DNA of 64,000 bases. Origin: a virus (lineage: Duplodnaviria > Heunggongvirae > Uroviricota > Caudoviricetes). Below the pieces are notes generated by a model that did not search any database, had not been told where the DNA came from, and worked only from the letters and a program-made list of their open reading frames with translations. The translations under genes were made by a program, and so were the position numbers. Within the stretch, counting starts at the first letter, position 1; the number at the start of each line of letters is the position of its first letter. Below, in pieces: positions 21,303 to 40,364 of the stretch. Where the stretch lies: IMG/VR virus record IMGVR_UViG_2675903278_000002; one strand, given 5' to 3'.

Positions 21303-22403
21303 TCACACTGCGCGGAATGCGATTTCGCCAGGTATTACTTCACCTTGCCAATACATTTGGGCAGCAACGCGATCTGCGAGGTCACGATAAATAGCCGTAA
21401 ATTCGCTATCTGGACGACTAATAACGGTTGGTGTTCCGTTATCCAGATCTTCACGAAGAGAGATATGAAGTGGCATTTGGCCTAACAACTGCGTGTTGTA
21501 TTTCTCGGCCAGTTTCTGTGCGCCACCGGTGCCAAAAATTGGCTCGTGATGACCGCAGTTACTGCAAATATGCACACTCATGTTTTCGACGATACCCAGT
21601 ACCGGCACTTCGACTTTTTCGAACATCACAATGCCTTTCTTCGCATCGATCAGCGCGATGTCTTGCGGCGTAGTTACCACAACCGCACCAGTTACAGGAA
21701 TGTTCTGCGCCAGCGTCAACTGAATATCACCAGTGCCCGGCGGCATATCGAGAACGAGATAGTCCAGATCAGGCCATAGAGTTTCCTGCAACATCTGCAT
21801 CAGCGCCTTGCTGGCCATCGGTCCACGCCACACCATTGCATTGTCGTCGGTGACCAGATAACCAATAGAGTTGGTTGCCAGGCCATGAGACATGATAGGT
21901 GCCATGTGAGTACCGTCCGGTGAGGTTGGACGTTGGTTTTCCGCGCCCAGCATGGTTGGAATTGATGGACCATAGATATCGGCATCCAAAATACCAACTT
22001 TCGCACCTTCAGCAGCCAACGCCAGTGCCAGATTTACCGCCGTGGAGGATTTACCTACGCCGCCCTTGCCTGAGCTGACGGCGATAATGTTCTTAACGCC
22101 ATTAATGCCTGGTTGGTTTTTGACGCGCTTAAGCGTGGCAATGTTGTACGACAGCTTCCAGTCAATAGCCTTTGCGCCAGTGATACGGAGCAGATCACCA
22201 CTACATTGCTCTTTCAGGTCTTCAAAAGGCTTATTCCACACGAAAGGCATGATTAGTTCGACATGCAGTGTGTCATCCATCAACGCAACATGGTGTAACG
22301 CTTTAAGCGTAGTCAGGTTGTGTTTCAGGGTTGGGTGCTGAAAATTAGCCAGCGTACCGGCTACCATTGCTCTCAGGGCATCCGGCGATTTGGACTCGCT
22401 CAT
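21303..22403 (-). CDS. apbC: iron-sulfur cluster carrier ATPase ApbC/Mrp (host-type)
   Basis: 366 aa; deviant Walker A AVSSGKGGVGKSST, CSNCGHH motif; from recall, matches enterobacterial ApbC/Mrp closely along its length (not alignment-checked, unlike metG); divergent from metG as in E. coli. Confidence 0.95.
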   Translation of the reverse strand: MSESKSPDALRAMVAGTLANFQHPTLKHNLTTLKALHHVALMDDTLHVELIMPFVWNKPFEDLKEQCSGDLLRITGAKAIDWKLSYNIATLKRVKNQPGINGVKNIIAVSSGKGGVGKSSTAVNLALALAAEGAKVGILDADIYGPSIPTMLGAENQRPTSPDGTHMAPIMSHGLATNSIGYLVTDDNAMVWRGPMASKALMQMLQETLWPDLDYLVLDMPPGTGDIQLTLAQNIPVTGAVVVTTPQDIALIDAKKGIVMFEKVEVPVLGIVENMSVHICSNCGHHEPIFGTGGAQKLAEKYNTQLLGQMPLHISLREDLDNGTPTVISRPDSEFTAIYRDLADRVAAQMYWQGEVIPGEIAFRAV

Positions 22404-22560
22404 CCCGTCTCCTTTATTTTAATTTGCGCAATTGTCGCCTTGTAGTGTACTCCAGCTACGACATTTAATCATTTATGAGAAATGCTGTTATCACATGGCA
22501 GACATAAGGCCATTTTGTTACTATCAAGCCCCTTTTCACTACAAAGAAGTAATGCCTACT

Positions 22561-24594
22561 ATGACCCAAGTCGCGAAGAAAATTCTGGTGACGTGCGCGC
22601 TGCCGTACGCTAACGGCTCAATCCACCTCGGCCATATGCTGGAGCACATCCAGGCTGATGTCTGGGTTCGTTACCAGCGAATGCGCGGCCACGAGGTTAA
22701 TTTCATCTGTGCCGACGATGCCCACGGTACGCCGATCATGCTGAAAGCACAGCAGCTTGGTATCACACCGGAGCAGATGATTGGCGAAATGAGTCAGGAA
22801 CACCAGACTGATTTCGCAGGCTTTAACATCAGCTATGACAACTATCACTCGACGCACAGCGAAGAGAACCGTCAGTTGTCTGAGCTTATCTATACTCGCC
22901 TGAAAGAGAACGGTTTTATTAAAAACCGCACTATCTCTCAGTTGTACGACCCGGAAAAAGGCATGTTCCTGCCGGATCGTTTTGTAAAAGGCACCTGCCC
23001 GAAATGTAAAGCGCCAGATCAATACGGCGATAACTGTGAAGTCTGCGGCGCAACATATAGCCCGACTGAATTGATCGAGCCGAAATCGGTGGTTTCTGGC
23101 GCTACCCCGGTAATGCGTGATTCCGAACACTTCTTCTTTGATCTGCCTTCTTTCAGCGAAATGTTGCAGGCATGGACCCGCAGCGGCGCGTTGCAGGAGC
23201 AGGTGGCGAACAAAATGCAGGAATGGTTTGAATCCGGCCTGCAACAGTGGGATATCTCCCGAGATGCGCCTTACTTCGGTTTTGAAATTCCGAACGCGCC
23301 GGGCAAATATTTCTACGTCTGGCTGGACGCGCCGATTGGCTACATGGGTTCCTTCAAGAATCTGTGCGACAAGCGCGGCGATACCACCAGCTTCGATGAA
23401 TACTGGAAGAAAGACTCCACCGCCGAGCTGTACCACTTCATCGGTAAAGATATTGTTTACTTCCACAGCCTGTTCTGGCCTGCCATGCTGGAAGGCAGCA
23501 ACTTCCGCAAGCCGACCAACCTGTTTGTTCACGGCTATGTGACGGTGAACGGCGCGAAGATGTCCAAGTCTCGCGGCACCTTTATTAAAGCCAGCACCTG
23601 GCTGAATCATTTTGACGCCGACAGCCTGCGTTACTACTACACTGCGAAACTCTCTTCGCGCATTGATGATATCGATCTCAACCTGGAGGATTTCGTTCAG
23701 CGCGTGAATGCCGATATCGTGAACAAAGTGGTTAACCTGGCCTCCCGTAATGCAGGCTTTATCAACAAGCGTTTTGACGGCGTGCTGGCAAGCGAACTGG
23801 CTGACCCGCAACTGTACAAAACCTTTACTGATGCCGCTGAAGTGATTGGCGAAGCATGGGAAAGCCGCGAATTTGGTAAAGCTATCCGTGAAATCATGGC
23901 ATTGGCTGACCTGGCTAACCGCTATGTCGATGAACAGGCTCCGTGGGTGGTGGCGAAGCAGGAAGGACGCGATGCCGATCTGCAGGCGATTTGCTCTATG
24001 GGCATTAACCTGTTCCGCGTGCTGATGACGTACCTGAAGCCGGTACTGCCGAAACTGACTGAACGTGCAGAAGCATTCCTGAATACAGAACTGACCTGGG
24101 ATGGTATCCAGCAACCGCTGCTGGGCCATAAAGTAAATCCGTTCAAGGCACTGTATAACCGCATCGATATGAAGCAGGTTGAAGCACTGGTGGAAGCATC
24201 CAAAGAAGAAGTGAAAGCCACAGCCGCACCGGTAACTGGCCCACTGGCTGACGACCCGATTCAGGAAACTATCACCTTTGACGACTTCGCCAAAGTTGAC
24301 CTGCGCGTGGCGCTGATTGAAAACGCAGAGTTTGTAGAAGGTTCTGACAAACTGCTTCGCCTGACGCTGGATCTCGGTGGTGAAAAGCGTAATGTCTTCT
24401 CAGGCATCCGTTCCGCTTATCCAGATCCACAGGCACTGATTGGTCGTCACACCATTATGGTGGCTAACCTGGCACCACGTAAAATGCGCTTCGGTATCTC
24501 TGAAGGCATGGTGATGGCTGCTGGCCCCGGCGGGAAAGATATCTTCCTGTTAAGCCCGGATGCTGGTGCTAAACCTGGCCACCAGGTTAAGTAA
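22561..24594 (+). CDS. metG: methionyl-tRNA synthetase (host-type)
   Basis: Starts [31 protein letters not shown]..., KMSKS present, ends ...GAKPGHQVK; essentially the E. coli MetG sequence; track ORF 22432 begins upstream in frame, ATG 22561 is the conserved start. Confidence 0.96.
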
Positions 24595-24677: not shown

Positions 24678-24692
24678 AAAACAATTTGTTTT
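24678..24692 (+). promoter_or_regulatory. class-A palindromic motif (first of a tandem pair)
   Basis: AAAACAATTTGTTTT followed by CTGCC, same as motif at ~29301. Confidence 0.6.
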
Positions 24693-24727
24693 CTGCCTTT
24701 TGTTGATGGAGATAATAAACCACATAA

Positions 24728-24743
24728 GAAAACAACTTGTTTT
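24728..24743 (+). promoter_or_regulatory. class-A palindromic motif
   Basis: GAAAACAACTTGTTTT immediately upstream of RBS GGAGTGG and ATG 24756. Confidence 0.6.
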
Positions 24744-24755
24744 GGAGTGGTTGAA

Positions 24756-26109: not shown

Positions 26110-26960
26110 AGGTTATGGTTGTTTATACAAATAAGAAAACAACTAAATAACAGATCAACGAAACGTCAACGCTTTCACCCGATTTGGTCTAAAAAATTGA
26201 CGTTTTCACACATCACTTCTTATACCCGTAACTCTACGCAGCAGACATCGCCACAGCGTCCAATTTTCACCACAGACGACCCAACACACTACCAACAAAA
26301 ACACACGCTCAAAATCGCTCCCGTTGCGTTACACAACCATATAAACAACTTATTTTCAGGCATAACAAAACAACTAAATAACACACATGCCATTTCCAAA
26401 AACAACCAACCTCTTTATGGCAGGCTACCGAAAAGACCCACCTCTTCTCCCCAGGCTACCGGACAACCAACCTAACTTTCACAGGCAATCCGAAAACATT
26501 CATACGCGCGATACCCACGACACGCCATTACCCAAACAGCGAAGAAACACCAGAATCACTGAACCCCCAACGAAGCCTGTAACCGCAAGGCTTCTCTCAA
26601 TCCCAAAAGACACGAAACAGAACAATCACGGGAAACGCCATTACCCAACACACGAATAACTACAAAAGCCCTTCACGCACTCCAGACAAACAACTCAAAC
26701 ACAATAACGAAAGGAATCGCCCACCTGCCATTACTCCATACACGGAGAAGAACAATCACCAAAACGACGAGAACACCCCATAGAAGAACCACCGCAAAAC
26801 GAACGAAACCACATACACCGACAGAGAGAACAACACACCCAATTCACCAACAGAATTAGTCGCCGTATAGAACGTTCTGGAAGGAGTGAGTGTTAACGTC
26901 CATAGAGAGGTTGAGACAGATAAAACACGAATAAAACACAACATGTATAGCGAAGAAGCC
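26110..26960 (+). ncRNA. candidate non-coding transcript, A+C-rich and G-poor on the + strand
   Basis: ~0.85 kb strongly depleted in G and T; starts after a class-A-like half motif (AAGAAAACAACTAAATAACA, repeated ~240 nt in); ends at hairpin+T terminator ~26983-27007; ORFs here are low-complexity. Confidence 0.35.
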
Positions 26961-26982
26961 AGGTATGTATAAGTGGGGAGAG

Positions 26983-27007
26983 AAGGAGGGGTGTCGCCTC
27001 CTTTTTC
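26983..27007 (+). terminator. rho-independent terminator
   Basis: GGAGG-GGTGTCG-CCTCC followed by TTTTT. Confidence 0.65.
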
Positions 27008-27059
27008 GTATTTATTCAACTCCTGATTTTACCCCCCGTAACACCCCTACGGTCAGCCT

Positions 27060-27210
27060 TCGGTCCATACAGGGAAAAGGCTGCATCCCGCTACAGAAAC
27101 GGCTGGGTTGCCTTCGGGGAACGGCTGGAGGTTTTCAGGGAAACGGTCGAGTTGCCTGTGTGGATTTCGGGAAAAGGCTCGATGCCGGTTCAGGAACGGT
27201 GGCGTACCGG
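27060..27210. repeat. array of short iterated repeats (GGGAAAmGGCT-like), ~6 copies at ~20-30 nt spacing
   Basis: CAGGGAAAAGGCTG, CAGAAACGGCTGG, GGGGAACGGCTGG, CAGGGAAACGGTCG, CGGGAAAAGGCTCG, CAGGAACGGTGGCG in series; related array at ~31085-31260. Confidence 0.6.
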
Positions 27211-27535
27211 TATAGCGTGAGGGAGAGTTGCGGCTGTCCACCTGTAATGTGCGGGAAGAAGAGAGGCGCTCACGTGCAGGCGAACTTACTTACCGCTGGA
27301 TTCCCTCTGAATGCCCAGCTACAGCGTAATTGTGCCAGACAGTCAGCGGGTCACAATCGATTTCAGTAGGTTTTCGGGGAGAAGAAAATTCTGCCCACCA
27401 GCCCTGCGGCGCGCGTAGAGCAGAATATCGTAAATACTGGTTCCGTGTCGTTCCCGGATACTCACTACCCAGCCTGGCTTTCCCGACATAAAATCCTTTT
27501 CCGCCTTTGTCTTATTGCGATAATAACACCAACAA

Positions 27536-27552
27536 GTAAACAACATGTTTAG
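27536..27552 (+). promoter_or_regulatory. class-A palindromic motif
   Basis: GTAAACAACATGTTTAG preceded by CGATAATAACACCAACAAG box, upstream of ATG 27583. Confidence 0.6.
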
Positions 27553-27582
27553 ACGTTATATAAACGAAGTGAGGATGAAGAG

Positions 27583-27801
27583 ATGATTAAGATGCCTGTG
27601 ACGGTTGAGGTGTGGGGCGTGGATTCCCTGGCTGAGTGTCTGGATGCAGTGGGGCCGGAGTTGTACCGCAAGTTGTGGTCGTTCGTCCCGGCAGAAGGGG
27701 AATCGCCCAAAGGGAAGGATATCTGGCACCTGCTGAGTGAAGATGAAAAGCGGGAGCTGGTGGACGCGGTACACAGCGAGTTCCCGGGCGACGAAGATTA
27801 A
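27583..27801 (+). CDS. hypothetical small acidic protein
   Basis: 72 aa; RBS GAGGATGAAGAG; terminator follows. Confidence 0.6.
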   Translation: MIKMPVTVEVWGVDSLAECLDAVGPELYRKLWSFVPAEGESPKGKDIWHLLSEDEKRELVDAVHSEFPGDED

Positions 27802-27806
27802 GAGTG

Positions 27807-27830
27807 AGGCCACCAGCACGGTGGCTTTTG
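27807..27830 (+). terminator. rho-independent terminator (GGCCACC...GGTGGC family)
   Basis: GCCACC-AGCAC-GGTGGC hairpin followed by TTTTG. Confidence 0.7.
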
Positions 27831-27912
27831 TCGCTATTAACCTCCGGGCAGCGCAGCACCGTAACGATATACTTTGTGGCCGTTTTCTTACTGGTATTGT
27901 TTACGCAATTCA

Positions 27913-27930
27913 GAAAACAACATGTTTAAG
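27913..27930 (+). promoter_or_regulatory. class-A palindromic motif
   Basis: GAAAACAACATGTTTAAG; ~35 nt upstream sequence nearly identical to that before the motif at ~28396. Confidence 0.6.
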
Positions 27931-27939
27931 GATTGCGTT

Positions 27940-28269
27940 ATGTTTGCAAATATCGACATCAACCAAATCAAGAAAATGACTCAAAAAGAGTTTGACCAGT
28001 TTTATGAGTTAGAAGGTTGGTCTTCCACTCTGATCAATTCGCGGTGGGTGCTTGAGCTGATGACTCGTGATGACGCACCTGCTTTGATGATTTGCGACAT
28101 GGGTGAAGATGCTGACTTTATGGATATGAGCGAATTTTGTGTGGACACATACAACCGCAGCCAGAAGTACTACTTCACATGCGATAGCGAAAATGACGTG
28201 ATTTCTAAGGTCTATCTTCACCTCGTCCAGCATTGGGACGTTCAGGAGTTTCTTGAAGTATTCGAGTAA
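27940..28269 (+). CDS. hypothetical small acidic protein
   Basis: ~109 aa from ATG 27940 (AAGGA upstream), in frame with track ORF 27874; terminator follows. Confidence 0.6.
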   Translation: MFANIDINQIKKMTQKEFDQFYELEGWSSTLINSRWVLELMTRDDAPALMICDMGEDADFMDMSEFCVDTYNRSQKYYFTCDSENDVISKVYLHLVQHWDVQEFLEVFE

Positions 28270-28277
28270 CCCCAACC

Positions 28278-28303
28278 AAAGCCAGCATTGCTGGCTTAAT
28301 TTC
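28278..28303 (+). terminator. rho-independent terminator
   Basis: AAGCCAGC-ATT-GCTGGCTT hairpin then AATTTC. Confidence 0.65.
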
Positions 28304-28395
28304 TCTATAGCCGCAGGGAAGAACCTGCATATCGCTCATGCACCTGATCAATATGCTTTGTAGCCGTTTTCTTACTGGTATTATTTACGCCATTG

Positions 28396-28412
28396 AGAAA
28401 ACAAGTTGTTTA
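28396..28412 (+). promoter_or_regulatory. class-A palindromic motif
   Basis: GAAAACAAGTTGTTTAC upstream of RBS GGAG and ATG 28423. Confidence 0.6.
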
Positions 28413-28422
28413 CGGAGTTGTG

Positions 28423-28734
28423 ATGAAAAAATCATTGGTTCTTGGTCTGGACAAAGACCAGAAGAGAAAAGAGAAGCCTGCGCTGGTTGCTCAATTAACT
28501 TTGCTGGACATCGTTGCCAATGGAACCTCTATTCGTCTGTTCCGTGAAACAGCGGTGTCTTTCGATAAAAACACCTTTACTCGTTATGTAATGAATGTTC
28601 GTCGCCAGCGTGGAAAAGGCTGGGTGGCATTTCAAAGAATGTGGCCGGAACATCAGCTCGAACTGGCTTTGATGGAAGTTAACCGCGTGGCCCAGCAAGA
28701 GATTCAGAGAGCATCAGTGATGGCAATAGCCTGA
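28423..28734 (+). CDS. hypothetical small basic protein
   Basis: ~103 aa from ATG 28423, in frame with track ORF 28393; terminator follows. Confidence 0.6.
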   Translation: MKKSLVLGLDKDQKRKEKPALVAQLTLLDIVANGTSIRLFRETAVSFDKNTFTRYVMNVRRQRGKGWVAFQRMWPEHQLELALMEVNRVAQQEIQRASVMAIA

Positions 28735-28767
28735 TAATGTGCAAGTGGTAATTAGTCGACAGTACGA

Positions 28768-28797
28768 CAGCCCCGCCATCCTTACGGGGCTTTTTTG
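28768..28797 (+). terminator. rho-independent terminator
   Basis: GCCCCG-CCATCCTTA-CGGGGC hairpin followed by TTTTTT. Confidence 0.8.
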
Positions 28798-28860
28798 TAT
28801 TGTAAGTACATACTTATGATCATAGAATATAAAAATAACCAAAACACTACGGAGAGTGAA

Positions 28861-29256
28861 ATGACCGTTAAACGCGAAAAACTGACAGTTGATGTTTACT
28901 ATGCCTCTGAAACCGCCGAAGGTAAGAATGTGGCAAAAATCACCGTTGTTACGTACAACACCGAAACTGGTGCCGAAGTCCAGGCCAGTACGATCGTGCG
29001 TAAAGGTGATGCCTCCGACGGCGAGTACGCGACTCAATACCAGTCCATTCTCGATGCAACTGACCCGCTGCTGCTGAAAATCGAGAACTACTTCCGCCAG
29101 GTTGATGAAGAGGTGTTTGAAACCATGATGAATATGGTTAACACCGTATTCGCCTCCAACCTGAATACCAACACTACCTGGATTGGTCAGTACGGCCTGC
29201 GCATTACCTCTGGCATTCCTGCCGACACCTTAATCCCTGAAAGCGTATTCGCTTAA
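28861..29256 (+). CDS. hypothetical protein
   Basis: ~131 aa from ATG 28861 (GGAGAG upstream), in frame with track ORF 28795; terminator follows. Confidence 0.6.
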   Translation: MTVKREKLTVDVYYASETAEGKNVAKITVVTYNTETGAEVQASTIVRKGDASDGEYATQYQSILDATDPLLLKIENYFRQVDEEVFETMMNMVNTVFASNLNTNTTWIGQYGLRITSGIPADTLIPESVFA

Positions 29257-29263
29257 TCCTCTT

Positions 29264-29293
29264 TAAATGGCGCGTAAACCGCGCCATTTTCTT
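29264..29293 (+). terminator. rho-independent terminator
   Basis: AATGGCGCG-TAAAC-CGCGCCATT hairpin followed by TTCTT. Confidence 0.75.
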
Positions 29294-29300
29294 ATGCCCG

Positions 29301-29318
29301 ATAACAATTTGTTTTCTG
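29301..29318 (+). promoter_or_regulatory. class-A palindromic motif
   Basis: ATAACAATTTGTTTTCTG, same variant as at ~24678. Confidence 0.6.
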
Positions 29319-29373
29319 CCTTATCTGATTTGTGAAAATGATTTCACTGAAGCAACTTAATAAGGAAACCATC

Positions 29374-29748
29374 ATGGGACTTGATATCTATATCGAGACA
29401 CAGCCTAAAAACGATCTGAATAACGAGGCATCCAGAAAGCAGGTTGCTTACTTCCGTAAGTTCAATGCGCTCGTTGGGTGGATGGAGCGCAACGTAGGTG
29501 AAGTCGAAAATTGTGAGCTTTTAGAATTAACGATGAATGACATTTGTTTTCTGAAGGCTCATTTGATGCACATAAACGAAAGTAATTGCGAAGAGTACTT
29601 GCCTACCCGGGAAGGTTTTTTCTTCGGCAGTCAGGAGTACGATGAAGGTTACTGGCATGATGTGGGGCAGTTGAAAGAGCTTGTGGAAGATCTGATTAAG
29701 AACCACGACTTTCACAATAACAGACTGACCTTCTGCGCCTGGTGGTAA
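29374..29748 (+). CDS. hypothetical protein
   Basis: ~124 aa from ATG 29374 (AAGGAAACC upstream), in frame with track ORF 29332. Confidence 0.6.
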   Translation: MGLDIYIETQPKNDLNNEASRKQVAYFRKFNALVGWMERNVGEVENCELLELTMNDICFLKAHLMHINESNCEEYLPTREGFFFGSQEYDEGYWHDVGQLKELVEDLIKNHDFHNNRLTFCAWW

Positions 29749-29750
29749 AT

Positions 29751-29894
29751 ATGGGCGATTTCAAGAAACGCCTGAAGGAAAGAGCCGAGATGGTCAGAAA
29801 GCAAAACGCCTCTTCTGTCATCAGATACGCAAGGCAGTTTAGTCGCAACAACAAATCAGTTGAGGAAAAGATCCTTAGCGTAATCGGTCGATAA
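29751..29894 (+). CDS. hypothetical small basic protein (47 aa)
   Basis: ATG 2 nt after previous stop; product MGDFKKRLKERAEMVRKQ...; below track cutoff. Confidence 0.35.
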   Translation: MGDFKKRLKERAEMVRKQNASSVIRYARQFSRNNKSVEEKILSVIGR

Positions 29895-29900
29895 TTATTA

Positions 29901-29925
29901 AGGCCACCAGCATTGGTGGTCTTAA
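29901..29925 (+). terminator. terminator-like hairpin (GGCCACCA...TGGTGG family)
   Basis: AAGGCCACCAGCATTGGTGGTCTT; near-identical hairpin at ~30373. Confidence 0.55.
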
Positions 29926-30049
29926 ATGACTTTTAATAACCGAAGGTTAGTTTGAAACCTGGCTATCAACTTCCAGAACCTTTCTTGTGTATTCAGCCTG
30001 TATTAACTTCTTTTATGCCTTATCTACACTGCGATAATTACACCAACAA

Positions 30050-30067
30050 GAAAACAACATGTTTACG
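30050..30067 (+). promoter_or_regulatory. class-A palindromic motif
   Basis: AGAAAACAACATGTTTAC preceded by GCGATAATTACACCAACAAG box. Confidence 0.6.
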
Positions 30068-30077
30068 CAGTGAGGAT

Positions 30078-30365
30078 ATGCTCATGACTGATTTCACCAT
30101 TACCCCTAAAGCACAAAATGTATTTCTTGAATCATGGCTGGACTTGCCGGAAACAGAACAGCAAGAAATGGATCATGTGGATTATGACGAGCAGGTAAGC
30201 ACGCGATTCTTCCACTTTGAGGGATGCGTTTACGACATTGCTGACTTCATGCGAGATGACCGCTTCCCTGAATGGCACGCCAGTTATCCACTAAACGCCT
30301 TTGCCATGCTGATGATCCGTGTGGATGATTCAGGGGATACCATCGACATCGGTCTGCTCCACTAA
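30078..30365 (+). CDS. hypothetical small acidic protein
   Basis: ~95 aa from ATG 30078 (GTGAGGAT upstream), in frame with track ORF 29952. Confidence 0.55.
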   Translation: MLMTDFTITPKAQNVFLESWLDLPETEQQEMDHVDYDEQVSTRFFHFEGCVYDIADFMRDDRFPEWHASYPLNAFAMLMIRVDDSGDTIDIGLLH

Positions 30366-30370
30366 AGATT

Positions 30371-30396
30371 AAGGCCACCAATGCTGGTGGCCTTAA
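30371..30396 (+). terminator. terminator-like hairpin
   Basis: AAGGCCACCA-ATGC-TGGTGGCCTT, perfect 8-bp stem, then AAATG. Confidence 0.55.
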
Positions 30397-30534
30397 ATGA
30401 CCATCCTGTTTCCCGCAGGCTAAAAACACCAACCTCTTACCTCCAGGCAACCGACAAACCCACCTGTTCCCGTCCGGCTACCGCAACTTTCCACTTTGAC
30501 GCCTTATTCGTACAACGATAATTAACACCAACAA

Positions 30535-30555
30535 GAAAACAATTTGTTATTTACG
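30535..30555 (+). promoter_or_regulatory. class-A palindromic motif
   Basis: AGAAAACAATTTGTTATTTAC preceded by ACGATAATTAACACCAACAAG box. Confidence 0.6.
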
Positions 30556-30569
30556 ATAAGGAATTAATC

Positions 30570-31052
30570 ATGAATTTTATCGCTACTGTAAACGCACCCG
30601 CACATGGCAATATCGCTGTAACGTTCTCTGACATTGAAAAACGAGTACTTGGTGCATGGCGCGACAATGAGACGGTAGAACTGTCAGCACAAGAAAAATG
30701 CATTATTGCACGCGACATCATTGGCAATCGTCGTTACTCGCGGGTATTTGAGAAAGCGTATGTGGTAAATTCTGGGTTCGGAACGTTCGTCTTTCCGGTG
30801 CGCTCCGGGCGATTCTGCCAGTCCAAGCTGATTGAGTTCGCTACGCAGATTTCTGTCTGGATTAAAACTCAATCGTCGTTCAAATTTTCCGACGATGAAG
30901 CAGTATCGCAGGGGATGCGGATCGCCAACAATGCGATTAAATGCAAAAACATTACGTATACCGCTGGCGTTGATACATGGAAACTGTTTTGCGCTAACTT
31001 TATGCTGAATGTATACGCAAGCAACCGCATCCACATCCTTGATGGCGTGTAA
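30570..31052 (+). CDS. hypothetical protein
   Basis: 160 aa; RBS AAGGAATTAATC; hairpin terminator follows. Confidence 0.65.
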   Translation: MNFIATVNAPAHGNIAVTFSDIEKRVLGAWRDNETVELSAQEKCIIARDIIGNRRYSRVFEKAYVVNSGFGTFVFPVRSGRFCQSKLIEFATQISVWIKTQSSFKFSDDEAVSQGMRIANNAIKCKNITYTAGVDTWKLFCANFMLNVYASNRIHILDGV

Positions 31053-31055
31053 CTG

Positions 31056-31083
31056 AGAAGAGGGCCAGAAACGGCCCTTTCTC
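31056..31083 (+). terminator. rho-independent terminator
   Basis: AGGGCC-AGAAAC-GGCCCT hairpin followed by TTCTC. Confidence 0.7.
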
Positions 31084-31084
31084 T

Positions 31085-31260
31085 ATAGCCACCAGCTGCC
31101 GCAGGGAAATTTTCAGAAACGGCGAGGAACGTATTCATAAGCCGACGGGAAACGGCCAGGATTTTTTCGGGAAACGGCTGCATTCGCCTTTATGTAGAAA
31201 AAAACATCGGGAAGCTGGTGGAATCCAACCAGCGGTTGTCGGACAGGCGAGCGGGGAAAA
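31085..31260. repeat. second array of GGGAAACGG-like iterated repeats
   Basis: GCAGGGAAATT, CAGAAACGGCG, GACGGGAAACGGCC, TCGGGAAACGGCTG, ATCGGGAAGCTGG, GCGGGGAAAATT; begins with CTCTATAGCC box also seen after the terminator at ~28303. Confidence 0.6.
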
Positions 31261-31289
31261 TTATGATGACTTTCGTCGCCTGAGACATC

Positions 31290-31360
31290 CAGATTTCTTT
31301 CGTAGCATAATCACATACGTGATTAAGTGGTGTGATTATGTGAAAAATCACGCGCACATA
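31290..31360. promoter_or_regulatory. cluster of TCACA/TGTGA half-site palindromes
   Basis: AATCACATACGTGATT, GTGTGATTATGTGA, AATCACGCGCACATAAT within ~70 nt of AT-rich non-coding DNA. Confidence 0.35.
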
Positions 31361-31635
31361 ATACGCGAGCGGATACGGAACAAAACAAAATGCCGATCCG
31401 CGCCGACAAATAAACGCGGATCACATAGCAAGAATAAAAGCCAATGATTAGCCATACGTTATAGCGCAATATAACGCATTTTAAGCGCGTTAATGTGCTA
31501 AGTAATGGGTATGTACTGGTAAGGATATAAAAGCGCGTCTATGGCGTTATTTTGGCGCTTATTTTTATGTTGTTGGAGTGAGTTAAAGACAATAAAAAAC
31601 GCGCCATCATTGGCGCGCTATGGTGGGAGTATTGG

Positions 31636-31662
31636 AAACGAAAAAAGCGCCCATAGTGGGCG
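31636..31662 (-). terminator. rho-independent terminator for minus-strand cassette
   Basis: AAGCGCCCATAGTGGGCGCT hairpin with A-run on + strand; same 20-nt hairpin in inverse orientation at ~32139. Confidence 0.65.
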
Positions 31663-31669
31663 CTCGATT

Positions 31670-31900
31670 TTATTTGTGTAAACTGATTTTAAATCCCATT
31701 TCTACAAACGCTTTTAACATTAAAAATATATCAGCGTCGTTGATTCCAATATCCGAACGCTCAATATCATTTAATAAATCAATTTTACGCGTTGTTTCAT
31801 CGATAAACTCGACTGAGCGCCCAGCGTAACCAGCGATCCCAGCGATGCGATTAACAAAATATTCATTGCGCACGTTAACGCCAGCGATAAGAACAAACAT
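31670..31900 (-). CDS. hypothetical small protein
   Basis: 76 aa; minus-strand AAGGAG RBS 7 nt before ATG; AT-richer than flanking DNA by eye. Confidence 0.55.
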   Translation of the reverse strand: MFVLIAGVNVRNEYFVNRIAGIAGYAGRSVEFIDETTRKIDLLNDIERSDIGINDADIFLMLKAFVEMGFKISLHK

Positions 31901-33419: not shown

Positions 33420-33944
33420 TCAAAAAGGCAAAATTCGTTCAACCCAATCGAACAAAACAACTATTTTTCTACCGTTCTCGACACGTAGTGTAACCTGACA
33501 AGCATCTGCGCCTGCTGACACCCCCTCAATTTCACGGCCATCCGCCATGTACACCCTTATAGATTTGTTTGCTTTGTAGGCTTGGTTGCAAATTGCAAAA
33601 AAATCGCGGCGTGATGGCCGATTATCGACATAATCAGGGTGAACTGTTAGTCGACCTTTGAAATCGTGAGCGATACTGTCAACCACACCTGATTCAATTG
33701 TACTAATGCGTTCAAGTGGGAGCCTTATACGATTTTCTTTGTCAAAAGGGGCTGGGCAAAGGTCAACTTTGTTACGAGATGGCATGAGGCCATAAACGTA
33801 CATGCAAAACGCCTGGCCATCTTCGAGAGTGACCCTTACAGGAATTTGTTCTCTGCGCCAGAACATCAGTAGTTTTTCAACGTTAGTGTAATCTCGCGGC
33901 CAGAGTTCAGCTTGGATACCGTAGGTAATATCTTTGGTTGTCAT
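33420..33944 (-). CDS. hypothetical protein
   Basis: ~174 aa from internal Met (MTTKDITYG...) of track ORF 33420..34022; ATG 1 nt after the upstream lipoprotein gene stop. Confidence 0.55.
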   Translation of the reverse strand: MTTKDITYGIQAELWPRDYTNVEKLLMFWRREQIPVRVTLEDGQAFCMYVYGLMPSRNKVDLCPAPFDKENRIRLPLERISTIESGVVDSIAHDFKGRLTVHPDYVDNRPSRRDFFAICNQAYKANKSIRVYMADGREIEGVSAGADACQVTLRVENGRKIVVLFDWVERILPF

Positions 33945-33948
33945 ATCA

Positions 33949-34371
33949 TCACAGAGTTGTTGGCAGAATGTCGATGTCACCAGAATTGCTGGTAAACACC
34001 CTGAACGCTTTTGTGTCTCCATTCTTCAGAGTCGTTTCTCGCTCTTGACGAGCGGGGTTTAGAGCACATAAACCTGCACCTTCAAGAGATGCACCCACAA
34101 TTAATTCTCCGGCATTTAAATGGAAAGTCGCTTTTTCGCCTGTAGCCAGTTTTGCGACAGTTTCGCCGTTGATGAAAATGGAAGCATCACATCCAGCTCC
34201 TACAAAACCTGTGTCTCTCATTACCACCAACGTAGCTGGCGCTGCGCTTTGATACTTGAACACTTTGGCCTGCGGTGCTGGTTTGGCGTCATGGATTGAT
34301 ATTGGGTGTGATTGGCACGCGGCAAGCATCAACACTGGTAACGTTAGTAGAGGGAGAAGCGAGTATTTCAT
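33949..34371 (-). CDS. putative lipoprotein (candidate superinfection-exclusion protein)
   Basis: ~140 aa from internal Met (MKYSLLPLLTLPVLMLAACQ...); lipobox LAAC; function inferred by analogy. Confidence 0.6.
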   Translation of the reverse strand: MKYSLLPLLTLPVLMLAACQSHPISIHDAKPAPQAKVFKYQSAAPATLVVMRDTGFVGAGCDASIFINGETVAKLATGEKATFHLNAGELIVGASLEGAGLCALNPARQERETTLKNGDTKAFRVFTSNSGDIDILPTTL

Positions 34372-36322: not shown

Positions 36323-36347
36323 ATAATAAGTAAGTGATTACTTAGTG
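36323..36347. repeat. class-B palindrome in divergent intergenic region
   Basis: TAATAAGTAAGTGATTACTTAGTGG between helicase (-) and ParB-like (+) starts; overlaps a TATAAT hexamer. Confidence 0.55.
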
Positions 36348-37043
36348 GATTGTAGCAATAAAATGGATGTAAAAATCACGATTTTGCAGGTTGATGTTGC
36401 CAACCTTCGCCCGAATACCTGGAACACCAATTCGGTTGGTGCGCAGAATTTTGAAAAACTGAAAGGTTCTATCGAAAAATTGGGCTTTTTTAAGCCAATT
36501 TTGGCTCGTGAACTTGAAGATGGATTTTTTGAAATCCTCGGCGGTGAACATCGCTGGCGTGCTGCTATTGAGCAAGGAATTTCAACGGTTCCGGTGCTTT
36601 CTGTGGGCAAAATTAGCGATGTCGTAGCTAAACAGATGTCACTGGTGGACAACGAGCGATACGGTGAAGACGACCAAATCGCATTGCAACGCTTCATTGA
36701 AGAAATTCAGTCAGAACTTGACTATCAACTGTCTGAAATCGCCCCGTATGACGACGAAATCTCGATGGTTTTAGCAAAAGAGGCGGCAATCGACCTTGAA
36801 GCACTGGAGGCGTTGTCTCGTGGTAGTGATGAGCCTGTCGATACCGACAAACGAGAGAAAACCGAACGTGTGGGTGCGGAACATCAGACCATGCGCTTCA
36901 AAGTAACTTTCGATGCGTCAGATCGTGTTGCAGAAACCATAAAAAACATCATCAAAGAGCAGGCTATTAACACCGGTAATGAAATGGAGAACGCTGGTGA
37001 GGCTCTGGTGTGGCTGGTCGACTACTACAAGGAGCGTATGTAA
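36345..37043 (+). CDS. ParB-like nuclease domain protein
   Basis: 232 aa; ParB/Srx-like N-terminal motif FEILGGEHRWRAA; track start is GTG 36345, ATG at 36363 also possible. Confidence 0.8.
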   Translation: MDCSNKMDVKITILQVDVANLRPNTWNTNSVGAQNFEKLKGSIEKLGFFKPILARELEDGFFEILGGEHRWRAAIEQGISTVPVLSVGKISDVVAKQMSLVDNERYGEDDQIALQRFIEEIQSELDYQLSEIAPYDDEISMVLAKEAAIDLEALEALSRGSDEPVDTDKREKTERVGAEHQTMRFKVTFDASDRVAETIKNIIKEQAINTGNEMENAGEALVWLVDYYKERM

Positions 37044-37711
37044 TGACCAAAAAGTTTGAAATCGTATATCGCGACCCGGCAGATCTTATTCCCTATGAGA
37101 TGAATGCCAAAAAGCATGATGAACAGCAGATCAGAGATTTGGCCGCAGCCATTAAAAAGCGCGGATTTGACCAGCCAATTACGGTCGATAAGAACGACGT
37201 AATTATTACTGGCCACGGCCGCCGTGAGGCTGCAATTTTTGCTGGACTTGAGCGCGTACCGGTTATTGTTCGTGATGATCTGAGTGATGACGAGGTTCGT
37301 GCGAAGCGCCTTGAAGATAACCGACTTGCCAGCATTGATTACGATGCAATTAAGCTACAGAAAGAGCTTGAGTCGCTTGTTCTGGACGATATTGAGGTTT
37401 TCGGCTTTGAAGAGCGTGAGTTGAATGTTCTCGTTGGCAGTATGACAGAAGAAATGGACACCGACTCGCTAGTTATCGATCTTGGCGAAGAAACTAAACG
37501 ACAGAAGGATGAACACACCGAGATCAGTCGTGAAGTTGCAGCGGAAGAAGTACGTGTTGTCGACGTATTGGGCTTTAAAACGCTCCCTGCTGGCTCTGCC
37601 ATTGTTGTTGGTGATTTGCTTGCCCATATGGAAGAAATGACGGGAGAAAGCGGGGTAGACGCATTTGTGGCATATGCGGAGAAGATCTCTTCCGGGGAGA
37701 TGGCTGCATGA
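37043..37711 (+). CDS. ParB-like nuclease domain protein (second paralogue)
   Basis: ~222 aa from ATG overlapping previous stop; ParB-like ITGHGRREAA; acidic C-terminal half. Confidence 0.8.
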   Translation: MTKKFEIVYRDPADLIPYEMNAKKHDEQQIRDLAAAIKKRGFDQPITVDKNDVIITGHGRREAAIFAGLERVPVIVRDDLSDDEVRAKRLEDNRLASIDYDAIKLQKELESLVLDDIEVFGFEERELNVLVGSMTEEMDTDSLVIDLGEETKRQKDEHTEISREVAAEEVRVVDVLGFKTLPAGSAIVVGDLLAHMEEMTGESGVDAFVAYAEKISSGEMAA

Positions 37712-38373
37712 GCAAATACATCATCAACGTATCGTTTCAGACACGCGTAAATAAAACCACGCGCACGTTGGAAATCGCTGAGTCGTTCGGGCTTGGCCTG
37801 GACGAAAAAGAGTGGACGCTTTACGACAATCTGGAGCTGGAAGTGAAGCAGGGCGATGTGGTGTACATCACCGGCCAATCCGGTTCCGGCAAATCCGTTG
37901 TGCTGCGCGAGTTGCAACGACAGATGAAGGATGAAGGGCTGTCTGTAGCCTCCATCGATGATTTTACCTTCGATAATGAGGTTAACGTCATCGATCAGTT
38001 GGGCAAAACGACCAGTGATGCGCTTGGGTTGTTATCTATGGCTGGTCTGAACGATGCATATCTGTTTGTTCGCAAGCCTTCTGAAATGTCAGACGGCCAG
38101 AAATATCGTCTCAAGATTGCCAAACTGATTGAGTCAGGCGCTAAAGTATGGGCTGCTGACGAGTTCGGCGCTGTTCTCGACCGTGTAACCGCTCAGGTTG
38201 TGGCGTCTAACCTCCAGCGTGCCGCTCGAAAGGTTGGTGCGACGGTAATGGTGGCGACGACTCACGAAGACCTGAAGAACGCGCTGCGCCCTGATATGCA
38301 GATCACCAAGCACTACAAAGAACGCGTGAAGGTGGAATATCACAATGGTAGTCATGATGAGGTCCATTCATGA
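37708..38373 (+). CDS. ABC-type ATPase
   Basis: 221 aa; Walker A ITGQSGSGKS, signature-like MSDGQKYRLKIA, Walker B VWAADEF; coupled to ParB-like genes. Confidence 0.8.
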   Translation: MSKYIINVSFQTRVNKTTRTLEIAESFGLGLDEKEWTLYDNLELEVKQGDVVYITGQSGSGKSVVLRELQRQMKDEGLSVASIDDFTFDNEVNVIDQLGKTTSDALGLLSMAGLNDAYLFVRKPSEMSDGQKYRLKIAKLIESGAKVWAADEFGAVLDRVTAQVVASNLQRAARKVGATVMVATTHEDLKNALRPDMQITKHYKERVKVEYHNGSHDEVHS

Positions 38374-39731: not shown

Positions 39732-40364
39732 ATGACGGTCGAAAAAGACGAGGTAAAAACTCGCCTGACACCAGCGGAGTGGGCCGAAGCTGAAGCCAAA
39801 TGGACGTCAGGCGAATATACACTCTCAAAGCTGGAGGAAGAGTACGGCATTCGTCGTGAAACACTCTCCAGACATTTCAAAAAGCGAGGATTAGAGAAAG
39901 GCGCGGACTCTGTTGGGAAGATGGTTCGTGAGTCTCTTAAATCTGACGCAGAGCTTCGCGCTAAAGCCCGTGCGGAAAAGATAGAAGAACGTCGTACACG
40001 TTATGACGGCTGGGCGTATGCGTTGGGGCAGATGGTGATGGTCGAAGTCACTACGGCCAAACGTGAGGGTAAGCCTTTAGGGGCGATTGAGGATTCTCTC
40101 AAGAGCTTACAGAGAGCCAGTAATACCCTTGCAAAATGCTTTGAAGTTTCGTCCAAAGCATTGGGCATGGATCATGCGGAAAATGACGAGGAAGAAATTC
40201 CGAACCTGGTATTTGGTGAGCTTACGCCTTCCCAGGTGGCGAAATTACGTCAGGAAGACGACGAGCCTGAAATCATCGATGACGAATTGCTTGAGACGTT
40301 GGAAGAAGAAGCTCTAAGCGAATTTGATGCGACAGATGATGGAAGTGAAGGGGAGGACGAATAA
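39732..40364 (+). CDS. terminase small subunit (putative)
   Basis: 210 aa; helical N-terminal region, highly acidic C-terminal tail; directly precedes and is coupled to large subunit. Confidence 0.7.
   Translation: MTVEKDEVKTRLTPAEWAEAEAKWTSGEYTLSKLEEEYGIRRETLSRHFKKRGLEKGADSVGKMVRESLKSDAELRAKARAEKIEERRTRYDGWAYALGQMVMVEVTTAKREGKPLGAIEDSLKSLQRASNTLAKCFEVSSKALGMDHAENDEEEIPNLVFGELTPSQVAKLRQEDDEPEIIDDELLETLEEEALSEFDATDDGSEGEDE

Follow-up and report, generated by a model that had tools for sequence, protein, structure and literature searches.

The stretch of DNA analysed here (the window, 64,000 nucleotides) belongs to an SSU5/pHCM2-type phage-plasmid, and the six related sites that it carries at 27071–27201 (array A) probably constitute a protein-binding DNA array, being neither coding sequence, nor RNA element, nor plasmid origin. 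Array A is one half of a pair with a second array (array B, 31065–31179), and the pair delimits an island of small early genes of 1.4–4.1 kb, apparently driven by a conserved family of strong promoters and crowded with Chi sites in both orientations. Array B and the Chi island are new; both were overlooked by the original prediction, which was made from the sequence alone, and both change the picture. Tentatively, we place the arrays at the edges of a terminally redundant segment that may assist circularisation through Chi. The outcome of the analysis is a conserved array pair, a sharply bounded Chi island and a repeated early-promoter cassette, which offer starting points for locating the centromere of these elements, the origin used in the phage mode or the ends formed on packaging. 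Klebsiella, E. coli, Enterobacter and Salmonella are frequent hosts of SSU5/pHCM2-type phage-plasmids, which the literature on such elements describes as spreading resistance genes; the arrays provide a compact sequence signature that is usable for typing the family.

Sequence, conservation and non-coding nature of array A

The six sites of array A lie on the + strand within the originally predicted interval and share the consensus TYCRGGRAAMGGCT. Aligned on the AAMGG core, they read, in order, ACAGGGAAAAGGCTGC, CTACAGAAACGGCTGG, TTCGGGGAACGGCTGG, TCAGGGAAACGGTCGA, TTCGGGAAAAGGCTCG and GTTCAGGAACGGTGGC, with core starts at 27076, 27098, 27120, 27142, 27173 and 27195. The existence of six related sites in the same orientation was confirmed beyond shuffle expectation: GGRAAMGGYYSR matches four times in the window (0.42 expected; at least four matches in 0 of 100 shuffles), a chain of four sites at 22 ± 1 bp was observed (maximum of two in 200 dinucleotide shuffles), and the density of six matches per 150 nt exceeds the shuffle maximum of four. 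The spacing, which had been given as ~20–30 nt, fits that range but is more regular than stated, at 22, 22, 22, 31 and 22 bp in the AAMGG register. A seventh, degenerate look-alike (AGGTTTTCGGGGAGAAG) at 27368–27384 explains the original right-hand limit of 27370. Array A was not reported by Tandem Repeats Finder, because only ~12 of each 22 nt are conserved.

The conserved cores of the units, all on the + strand, are AGGGAAAAGGCT in unit 1 (27071–27082), which is kept in the Escherichia, Salmonella/Enterobacter and Kluyvera types, ACAGAAACGGCT in unit 2 (27093–27104), CGGGGAACGGCT in unit 3 (27115–27126), AGGGAAACGGTC in unit 4 (27137–27148), CGGGAAAAGGCT in unit 5 (27168–27179) and TCAGGAACGGTG in unit 6 (27190–27201). 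The highest conservation within the array is found at the junction GGCTGGAGGTTTTCAGGGAAACGG at unit 4. Unit 5 follows unit 4 at a distance of 31 bp, and the extra 9 bp before it are missing from the Klebsiella type. The left flank (CCCCGTAAC ... CGGTCAGCCTTCGG; 27036–27068, +) is also conserved in the alignments and is found in the extra lineages as well. Approximately 60 nt upstream of the array, an intrinsic terminator (26980–27007, +; −18.6 kcal/mol, z = −3.2) closes an A+C-rich region.

The CDS-free region of array A was matched in 718 plasmid records, and a 99.7%-identical relative, the 101-kb plasmid NZ_CP029421.1, was used for comparison. Between lineages, the cores show 66–82% identity and the spacers 35–58% (p = 0.004 to 8e-5), and the 22-bp register is retained in the Salmonella, Enterobacter, Kluyvera, Klebsiella and 'C' lineages despite the divergence of the spacers. 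The number of units varies by whole units (four, five or six); PhiR41_1 and p09EL50 lack precisely one unit, with unit 2 lost by fusion to unit 3, and indels of 10, 9 and 21–23 nt distinguish the lineages at this locus. A protein-based search of genome contigs for the locus found nothing, and motif matches outside the family (contigs L071–L118) were rejected as chance or unrelated tandem repeats. The phased register, the conservation of cores over spacers and the gain or loss of whole units support the earlier suggestion that the sites form an array for a DNA-binding protein, which we predict from these sequence features. Array A would consist of six phased sites for one sequence-specific DNA-binding protein of SSU5/pHCM2-type phage-plasmids and, with a core of ~12 bp every 22 bp (approximately two helical turns), the sites would therefore point to approximately the same side of the helix. 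Candidates for this protein include the product in the TerS position (39732–40364), the 160-aa protein encoded at 30570–31052 and the SF2 helicase of the element, in addition to the possible partition proteins discussed below.

The only ORF over the repeats (26965–27369) had been regarded as spurious and the region as non-coding, and comparison of the lineages bears this out. The ORF, which spans the terminator and the repeats, was rejected as a real gene because no frame is open across the array in all lineages: all + frames are interrupted by stops in the Klebsiella type, and all − frames in the Escherichia and Salmonella types. A conserved coding frame, the outcome that the original prediction had set against itself, was found in none of the comparisons across lineages. 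The repeat period of 22 nt is not a multiple of three, frame-breaking indels separate the lineages, and the array stretch is left without annotation by PGAP in most relatives. In the LF82 lysogen grown in LB, the array ORF (CYRAN_104) has log2(fpkm+5) values of 4.09 and 3.52, on a scale on which 2.32 corresponds to zero (PMC9928086 S1 Table), and we judged this expression to be near background.

A structured RNA or a known RNA family was ruled out by the folding z-scores of both strands of array A (−1.6 to +1.5), by a consensus fold of merely −7.8/−6.0 kcal/mol and by the lack of any Rfam match to the array, even at E ≤ 10. CRISPR repeats, lambda boxB, RfaH ops and DnaA boxes were compared by eye and gave only chance-level matches of 6–8 nt.

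Array B, the Chi island and its cargo

Array B shares its motif and strand (+) with array A and consists of CCAGAAACGGCC (31065–31076), TCAGAAACGGCG (31113–31124), CGGGAAACGGCC (31146–31157) and CGGGAAACGGCT (31168–31179), spaced by 48, 33 and 22 bp. An intrinsic terminator of the last island gene (31058–31083, +; −17.7 kcal/mol, z = −4.1) precedes and overlaps array B, the first site of which, CCAGAAACGGCC, sits in the terminator loop; an intrinsic terminator thus precedes each of the two arrays. A motif scan of the whole genome, proposed earlier as a check, was carried out on the 101-kb NZ_CP029421.1 and identified arrays A and B as its only motif clusters. Array B is kept in the Salmonella/Enterobacter, Kluyvera, Klebsiella and 'C' lineages and in pMT1 of Y. 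pestis. The arrays flank the island in all lineages examined except at the pMT1 locus, where array B is present and an IS200-like gene occupies the expected position of array A; the names given for the 718 records with a match to the region of array A do not include Yersinia.

Chi is recognised solely by RecBCD arriving from its 3' side. Seven GCTGGTGG sites lie on both strands between 27395 and 31221, at 27395(−), 27756(+), 27810(−), 29904(−), 30383(+), 31089(−) and 31214(+), and six of the seven are in non-coding DNA. The outermost Chi sites point outward, and an inverted Chi pair encloses array B. The window contains 22 Chi sites, against 1.5 expected; the interval between the arrays holds 7 of the 24 sites in the E. 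coli plasmid (p = 2e-5) and 7 of the 27 in the Klebsiella plasmid (p = 4e-6), and the flanks of the island are free of Chi for ~3.7–4 kb on either side. Among 38 loci, the Chi at the far end of the island, immediately beyond array B, has the (+) orientation in 36, and the first Chi after array A is a (−) site at approximately +200 in 23.

The island (1.4–4.1 kb from array to array among the relatives) varies in cargo, and the arrays stay at its edges. In the window, it carries seven small ORFs on the + strand (27583–31052), all of which belong to PHROGs of unknown function. The first island gene is preceded by a promoter-like block (27490–27555, +) with an extended −10 element (TGCGATAAT) and an A/C-rich leader (ACACCAACAAGTAAACAACATG), the alignment columns of which are invariant. 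An exact 22-mer of this block was found in 46 viral contigs; further copies in the window lie at 30029 (two mismatches) and, in a weaker form, at 24707.

Candidate functions of the array pair

The original prediction had offered origin iterons as one possible identity. Array A does consist of phased ~22-bp direct repeats in a single orientation that are conserved across lineages, as iterons do, but it is not the replication origin of the plasmid, because the Rep iterons are different, the arrays are kept when the initiator is exchanged, and neither a DNA unwinding element (DUE) nor a DnaA or IHF site adjoins it. In NZ_CP029421.1, repA is ~27 kb from array A and is flanked by iterons of the form (A/T)CCACT(A/G)T(A/G)GAGAG rather than GGRAAMGG; the array motif is absent around repA in a scan of the same plasmid, and this difference in sequence also led us to reject array A as a binding or handcuffing array for RepA. 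The Klebsiella relatives encode a RepB-family initiator instead and retain both arrays. Searches for TTWTNCACA and WATCAANNNNTTR (DnaA box and IHF site) gave no match within 900 bp of array A, and the helix-stability profile contains no easily melted AT-rich stretch beside it. The genes neighbouring array A fall into PHROGs of unknown function, with no initiator gene adjacent.

The reading that we favour, tentatively, holds that the segment from array A to array B is terminally redundant when the genome is packaged in linear form, either as an exact direct terminal repeat or as a pac-proximal redundancy, with the arrays as boundary recognition sites for the packaging or end-processing machinery. 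After injection, RecBCD would enter at both DNA ends and, at most a few hundred bp further in, would meet a Chi in the right orientation, namely Chi(−) ~200 bp inside array A and, at the other end, Chi(+) ~30 bp outside array B; it would then load RecA, and recombination between the terminal copies would close the plasmid prophage into a circle. Both putative boundaries of the segment carry the array motif in one orientation. In its most explicit form, which we consider possible but doubtful, the packaged SSU5/pHCM2-type genome would carry a direct terminal repeat of 1.4–4 kb delimited by GGRAAMGG arrays, in which pre-early genes for host takeover would be joined by a purpose-built Chi island with sites in both orientations; host RecBCD and RecA would circularise the injected DNA, and the arrays would dock an end-forming or end-protecting protein. 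If this is true, it would represent a previously undescribed route by which a plasmid prophage is established, in a family of resistance-gene carriers that is widespread in the clinic, and the system would allow one to ask whether a temperate phage recruits RecBCD and Chi to establish itself as a plasmid.

Several observations speak against a terminal redundancy. Data on virion DNA ends of SSU5-type phages were not found in the searchable literature, and a literature search on repeats, origins, partition and termini of SSU5, pHCM2 and pMT1 returned nothing relevant; in the LF82 virome (run ERR8973296), the coverage of Cyrano, at only ~41x, is mixed with plasmid DNA and not distinguishable from plasmid contamination. 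A duplicated island was not found in public records; 12 records have a second matching place, and in the one inspected, NZ_CP113488.1, a section of 26 kb contained no duplication. The start points of deposited phage records do not coincide with the arrays, and among contig ends only that of one short contig falls near them, 60 nt before array A, which is not informative. The arrays are 8.5–12 kb from the terminase genes, and the large terminase subunit, the closest solved relatives of which are those of P74-26 and T4, permits no call of the packaging mode. In addition, the geometry of Chi and arrays is asymmetrical, because array B lies inside the outermost Chi and array A outside the nearest one, and the Chi(−) at +200 is absent from approximately one-third of the loci.

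It is rather unlikely, but deserves consideration, that the arrays represent an origin of lytic-mode replication and its auxiliary site, both bound by a phage initiator or helicase, with the Chi cluster protecting the free tails of rolling-circle intermediates that start there. Phased 22-bp direct repeats are classic iteron geometry, the two arrays are ~4 kb apart, and dense Chi in both orientations is located at them. The element encodes DnaE, a DnaB-like helicase, primase, ligase, RNase H and an SF2 helicase, and we argue that an element with its own replisome would therefore need a second origin. An unrelated viral contig (L082) carries GGGAAACGG repeats directly after a P-loop-motif gene, the product of which we read, without a family search, as a RecA/DnaB-like ATPase. 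However, the arrays are among the most stable DNA of the region (−1.5 kcal/mol per step), and the absence of an adjoining DUE, DnaA box, IHF site and initiator-like gene described above also weighs against this function. The polarity of Chi also argues otherwise. In the E. coli plasmid, a polarity switch made array B a promising candidate for a bidirectional origin, and this idea was dropped because, in the Klebsiella plasmid, (+) Chi sites flank the island to the left and right and the main switch coincides with the plasmid origin. Beyond the island, the change in polarity occurs at the plasmid origin rather than at the arrays, and the outward-facing outermost Chi sites have the wrong orientation for breaks that start inside the island.

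The second identity originally offered, a partition or centromere-like site, is likewise rather unlikely. The ParB-like proteins at 36345–37711, proposed as binding partners, proved to be genuine ParB-fold (ParB_N) proteins, and no link between them and the array motif was found. ParB-family centromeres are, as far as is known, palindromes, the normal targets of the ParB fold, whereas the array units are asymmetric and in one orientation, at variance with the palindromic parS of type Ia systems. The centromeres of type Ib/II systems are arrays of direct repeats of 10–20 bp, and the short direct repeats of array A in a 22-bp phase would fit this layout, with an adaptor as the putative binder. 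The arrays would then act as dispersed centromere-like sites bound by a partition adaptor of the prophage, either a 117-aa protein encoded after a ParA/MipZ-like ATPase or the ParB_N proteins, with a role in segregation and perhaps also in silencing of the early island during lysogeny, similar to the scattered centromeres of N15. No phased repeat arrays other than these two and the Rep iterons occur in the genome, and the ParA-like operon (NZ_CP029421.1 35505–36532) lacks an adjoining repeat array of its own. The 117-aa protein was found in 797 plasmid records with a host distribution nearly equal to that of the array, and it is at least 90% identical across genera, in line with the conserved core. 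On the other hand, neither motif copies nor a repeat array were found around the operon (NZ_CP029421.1 35328–36600), including its upstream region, which is the usual place of type Ib autoregulation; pMT1 keeps array B, yet the hosts named for the 117-aa protein do not include Yersinia; and the Chi island is left unexplained.

We regard a transcriptional boundary or silencer as quite unlikely. A phage regulator would coat the arrays and loop or insulate the early-gene island, either to keep its strong promoters off in the prophage or to block read-through into or out of the island. The positions of the arrays at both ends of a transcription unit, each just behind a terminator, the strong-looking, invariant island promoters and the low expression of the island genes of the LF82 lysogen in LB, with an increase under macrophage conditions (PMC9928086 S1 Table), are consistent with such a role. 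However, the invariant promoter block already holds a near-palindrome (TTATTGCGATAA) that may be an operator, array A is 300 bp upstream of the promoter with variable sequence between them, this gap is replaced by an extra gene in pHCM2-type elements, and the enrichment of Chi is not accounted for.

An element acting in RNA through GGA-type protein-binding motifs, such as a sponge that sequesters CsrA in the manner of CsrB, or a decoy or target for the RNA-binding protein of the FljA family encoded nearby (33420–34022), is suggested by GGA in five of the six units, by a CsrB-like spacing of ~20 nt with CAGGGAAAAGGCU resembling one CsrB repeat, and by the location of ten of ten sites on the transcribed strand, but it is very unlikely in view of the strong terminators upstream of both arrays with no promoter-like site in between, the absence of stable or conserved structure on either strand and of an Rfam match, strict conservation that extends beyond GGA to AAMGGCT, the DNA-like combination of an exact 22-nt register with whole-unit indels, and the low read counts in the lysogen. 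A connection of FljA to fliC-leader-like sequences would consist in a resemblance over 6–8 nt.

Comparison with known systems

The arrays resemble the iterons of plasmids (P1 RepA, F RepE, RepFIB, R6K and RK2) in their same-orientation register of ~22 bp, in the variation of copy number by whole units and in conserved cores with drifting spacers. They differ in that only ~12 of 22 bp are conserved, in the absence of an adjacent rep gene, an AT-rich unwinding element and a DnaA or IHF site, in the presence of different Rep iterons elsewhere in the element, and in their persistence under another initiator family. The sponge RNAs of the CsrB/RsmZ type also contain many GGA repeats ~20 nt apart on one strand, but the arrays have no hairpins, no promoter–terminator unit, no similarity to Rfam families and a conserved core that is longer than GGA.

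Phased arrays of short direct repeats are shared with R1 parC, pSK41 and type Ib parH, and the centromere sites of N15 are likewise dispersed between phage genes, at a distance from the par operon. Unlike the direct-repeat centromeres, the arrays have no copy of the motif at the par promoter; the sites of N15 are palindromic, and the arrays are tied to a Chi cluster. In the satellite phage P4, the sites of the alpha protein form two clusters, ori and crr, separated by 4.5 kb. The likeness to ori and crr lies in the clustering of a single short motif at two places ~4 kb from each other on a phage-plasmid; the P4 sites are octamers in both orientations, and no alpha-like primase-helicase is encoded beside the arrays. 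P1 pac is likewise a cluster of a short motif in a phage-plasmid, with hexamer repeats in two clusters that direct a packaging enzyme (PacA). However, a 162-bp section of pacA holds both P1 clusters, which contain GATC, whereas the arrays are 4 kb apart and 8.5–12 kb from the terminase genes and lack GATC.

The terminal repeat of T7 is flanked by the short-repeat arrays SRL and SRR, and the terminal redundancies of T5, SPO1 and phage K contain small early host-takeover genes behind strong promoters. A Chi island inside a terminal redundancy is, to our knowledge, not part of any of these systems, and the terminal redundancy of SSU5-type phages is, in contrast to theirs, a proposed one. The features that the segment between arrays A and B has in common with them are the short-repeat arrays at its edges, the small early genes, the repeated strong promoters and the variable cargo.

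Array A and its variation among related elements

The six related sites of the original prediction were indeed found, as a row of same-strand sites at 27071-27201 (array A). When these GGRAAMGG-type sites (consensus TYCRGGRAAMGGCT) were registered on their AAMGG core, the cores start at 27076, 27098, 27120, 27142, 27173 and 27195 on the + strand and are therefore spaced 22, 22, 22, 31 and 22 bp apart, a regularity beyond that of shuffled sequences. The pattern is not a product of chance, because the strict motif pattern has four matches in the window (0.42 expected), four sites form a chain at 22 ± 1 bp (the longest in 200 dinucleotide shuffles was 2) and six matches fall within 150 nt (shuffle maximum, 4). 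A strong + strand intrinsic terminator (26980-27007), located approximately 60 nt upstream, closes a 730-nt A+C-rich, G-poor region (26130-26860, + strand; A 40%, C 32% and G 12%) with internal repeats (GCCATTACCCAA, three times, and 31-nt units at 26400-26491). This region could represent an early RNA, long and without structure, for instance one that acts as a decoy of Hfq, Rho or the element's FljA-like protein. The sole ORF annotated on it (CYRAN_103), which covers part of it, yielded zero reads in an LF82 lysogen grown in LB (PMC9928086).

The sequence at 26000-28000 matches the SSU5-type phage-plasmids PhiR41_1, CMS-2020a and Cyrano of Escherichia at approximately 94%, and portions of it also match Klebsiella phages and Salmonella phage SSU5. 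As many as 718 plasmid records match 26950-27560 (310 from Klebsiella, 224 from Escherichia, 90 from Enterobacter, 49 from Salmonella and others), including pHCM2 of S. Typhi and the E. coli plasmid NZ_CP029421.1 (99.7% identity). Judged by its gene content, the element is a large siphovirus-plasmid hybrid, with genes for terminase, portal, capsid and tail, for ribonucleotide reductase, thymidylate synthase and Dam, and for an ApbC-like ATPase, as well as metG; its relatives carry repA and genes for a ParA-like ATPase, DnaE, a DnaB-like helicase, primase and ligase. The protein encoded at 33420-34022 (- strand) matches the entire Pfam profile Flag1_repress (E = 2.5e-84), the profile of FljA, the post-transcriptional repressor of fliC mRNA, and its C-terminal part shows a weak Hfq-like match. 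This protein may shut off host flagellin or may be an RNA-binding repressor for the element's own genes. In addition, 21303-24594 carries genes for a methionyl-tRNA synthetase of full length and, on the - strand, for an ApbC/Mrp-like P-loop ATPase; the latter gene, annotated as a septum site-determining protein in the LF82 lysogen, was expressed approximately 9-fold over background (PMC9928086).

The comparison drew on 34 different versions of array A in plasmids and viral contigs, to which others from genome contigs and a motif scan were added. The register of 22, 22, 22, 31 and 22 bp is identical in the Escherichia, Salmonella/Enterobacter/pHCM2 and Kluyvera types, although their spacers differ. 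The Klebsiella type, spaced 43, 22, 22 (22) bp, has a degenerate second unit and lacks the 9-bp insert, and a further lineage (L081, L083, L090 and L114) contains three or four near-perfect GGGAAACGG units 22 bp apart. Exactly one unit is absent from PhiR41_1 and p09EL50, and exactly two units (53 bp) are missing from a Buttiauxella element. Between lineages, core columns are 66-82% identical versus 35-58% for the spacers (Fisher p, 0.004 to 8e-5). The conserved cores, the conserved helical register and the indels of whole units have the appearance of protein-binding sites arranged in a row on double-stranded DNA. Two viral contigs with no relationship to SSU5 have repeat arrays of their own: at least five GGGAAACGG copies, an inverted pair among them, in IMGVR_UViG_3300046714_000194, directly 3' of a gene whose P-loop-motif product was taken, by inspection rather than a family search, to be a RecA/DnaB-like ATPase, and at least eight perfect 22-bp tandem repeats (AAGGGAAAAGGTTACCACGCAC) in IMGVR_UViG_2836755666_000029.

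Array B and the Chi island

A weight matrix derived from the six array A sites detected two further sites near 31.1 kb, and reading of this region defined array B (31065-31179), which comprises four + strand sites, CCAGAAACGGCC (in the terminator loop of a 160-aa gene), TCAGAAACGGCG, CGGGAAACGGCC and CGGGAAACGGCT, spaced 48, 33 and 22 bp apart. The whole-genome motif scan that had been proposed was run on the complete 101-kb NZ_CP029421.1, where the motif clusters, on either strand, at arrays A and B alone, and where repA, the ParA-like operon and the terminase genes all lack a nearby copy. Array B is kept in every lineage examined, including Y. pestis pMT1. The pMT1 locus (NZ_UAVH01000011.1) also retains the promoter cassette, and an IS200-like transposase gene occupies the place expected for the A+C-rich region and array A; the genera named for the 718 plasmid records that match the array A region do not include Yersinia. 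The gene-free region of approximately 450 bp at 31230-31670, between convergent operons, contains three or four hairpins resembling terminators, on both strands, as well as the inverted repeat CATAATCACA...TGTGATTATG. Its Rfam matches were all below threshold, and it may be an immunity or small-RNA locus.

Seven small ORFs, all belonging to PHROGs of unknown function, lie between the arrays. In relatives, the arrays are 1.4 to 4.1 kb apart; thus, the cargo is variable while the arrays remain at the edges. An invariant promoter-like block (TGCGATAAT, an extended -10 and an A/C-rich leader) precedes the ORFs, with copies at 27515 and 30029 and a weaker one at 24707. The corresponding near-identical cassettes (27490-27555, 30004-30070 and, weaker, 24680-24750; leader ACACCAACAAGAAAACAACATG) show no variation between E. 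coli, Klebsiella, Yersinia and Buttiauxella and may also be recombination points that shuffle the small-gene cargo. Their leader shares an AAC/AAG-type composition with the A+C-rich region.

The segment between the arrays is also an island of Chi sites (GCTGGTGG). The window contains 22 of these (1.5 expected), and seven, four on the - strand and three on the + strand, fall in 27395-31221. This island represents 3-4% of the genome and holds 7 of the 24 Chi sites in the E. coli plasmid (p = 2e-5) and 7 of the 27 in the Klebsiella plasmid (p = 4e-6), with Chi-free flanks of approximately 3.7-4 kb on each side. Although coding sequence makes up 63% of the interval, six of the seven sites fall outside it (p = 0.013). 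The first Chi past array A is a (-) site at approximately +200 in 23 of 38 loci, most loci have a (-) site just ahead of array B, and the closing site just beyond array B is (+) in 36 of the 38. Array B lies between two Chi sites of inverted orientation, at 31089 (minus) and 31214 (plus), a pair kept in nearly all relatives. In the remainder of both plasmids, the Chi sites switch from (-) to (+) at the plasmid origin, in keeping with a polarity linked to replication. Therefore, the island is a local exception, and the idea that array B is the main polarity switch was dropped.

Coding, RNA and plasmid-origin readings of array A

In the PGAP annotation of most relatives, array A is inside a stretch of approximately 1.5 kb without CDSs; the hypothetical ORFs that two phage records place over it differ from each other. 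The units recur every 22 nt, the lineages are separated by indels of 10, 9 and 21-23 nt, and no reading frame is open in all of them. A coding array was therefore rejected, and the earlier view of the repeats as non-coding stands. A structured or known RNA was also rejected: folding is ordinary on both strands, with z-scores of -1.6 and +0.4 in array A, of +1.5 and +0.7 in array B and of -0.7 to +0.8 across three lineages, a consensus fold built from 16 sequences over approximately 190 nt reaches only -7.8 (+ strand) and -6.0 (- strand) kcal/mol, and Rfam gave no match for the array even at E <= 10. No promoter-like site was found between the terminator and array A. In LB, the log2(fpkm+5) values of the LF82 lysogen (Cyrano) were 4.09 and 3.52 for the ORF over the array and 2.32 and 2.32, which corresponds to zero, for that over the A+C-rich region (PMC9928086 S1 Table).

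The suggestion of origin iterons failed for the plasmid origin. The repA gene of NZ_CP029421.1 (65580-66635) lies approximately 27 kb from array A and is flanked by its own iterons of approximately 22 bp, (A/T)CCACT(A/G)T(A/G)GAGAG, which are unlike the array motif and are accompanied by DnaA-box-like sequences. Klebsiella plasmid pKPS11 has a RepB-family initiator in place of RepA, yet keeps both arrays. Furthermore, no easily melted DNA adjoins array A, which is itself among the locally most stable DNA, and no DnaA box, IHF site or GATC was found next to it. The plasmid replicon is modular, with an E. coli-type RepA having ATCCACTATAGAGAG-type iterons on both sides of its gene (NZ_CP029421.1, 65050-67400) and a RepB-family initiator at the corresponding place in Klebsiella-type elements (NZ_CP103063.1, 73361-74578).

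Function of the paired arrays

Array A is probably one of two arrays of binding sites for a single sequence-specific DNA-binding protein, which mark the edges of a distinct DNA segment. Phased protein-site arrays are an already known kind of element; in the literature searched on the SSU5, pHCM2 or pMT1 family, we found no description of these arrays, their pairing or the Chi island. As a specific function, we tentatively favour the possibility that this segment forms the terminally redundant part of the packaged genome. The literature searched yielded no virion-end data for the SSU5-type family, and the public records searched included none carrying the island in duplicate. The IS200-like gene in the place of array A in the pMT1 locus and the absence of Yersinia from the genera named for the 718 records agree with a role in the phage mode rather than the plasmid mode.

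Two other functions are unlikely, to a similar degree. A lytic origin with a P4 crr-like partner would suit the iteron geometry and the element's own replisome, which needs a second origin, but a DUE, an adjacent initiator gene and the right Chi geometry are lacking. Dispersed centromeres would provide the ParA/MipZ-like operon with the repeat array that it does not have of its own, and the 117-aa partner of this ATPase is as conserved and widespread as the arrays; however, no copy of the motif occurs at the par promoter, array B is retained in pMT1 whereas the hosts named for the 117-aa protein do not include Yersinia, and the Chi island is left unexplained. The ParB-like proteins originally put forward as binders are encoded at 36345-37711. 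Within 36345-38373, the genes for two ParB_N-domain proteins in succession and then a small ABC-type ATPase lie immediately upstream of those for terminase and diverge from an operon with an SF2 helicase. Their ParB fold is genuine, the first aligning to Spo0J residues 23-171, including part of the DNA-binding region, but nothing ties them to these asymmetric direct repeats. A silencer or insulator of the island is improbable, and an RNA sponge is more improbable still.

The terminal-redundancy reading is suggested by the same motif at both edges and by the outward orientation of the outermost island Chi sites. RecBCD is known to read Chi only on approach from the 3' side. On entry at either end of the linear DNA, this enzyme would thus soon meet a readable Chi and would then load RecA on sequence repeated at the opposite end, leading to circularisation. 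Known terminal redundancies also fit this reading. Those of T5, SPO1 and phage K carry small early genes behind a repeated strong promoter, similar to the cargo of the island, and the terminal repeat of T7 is flanked by short-repeat arrays, as the island is by arrays A and B.
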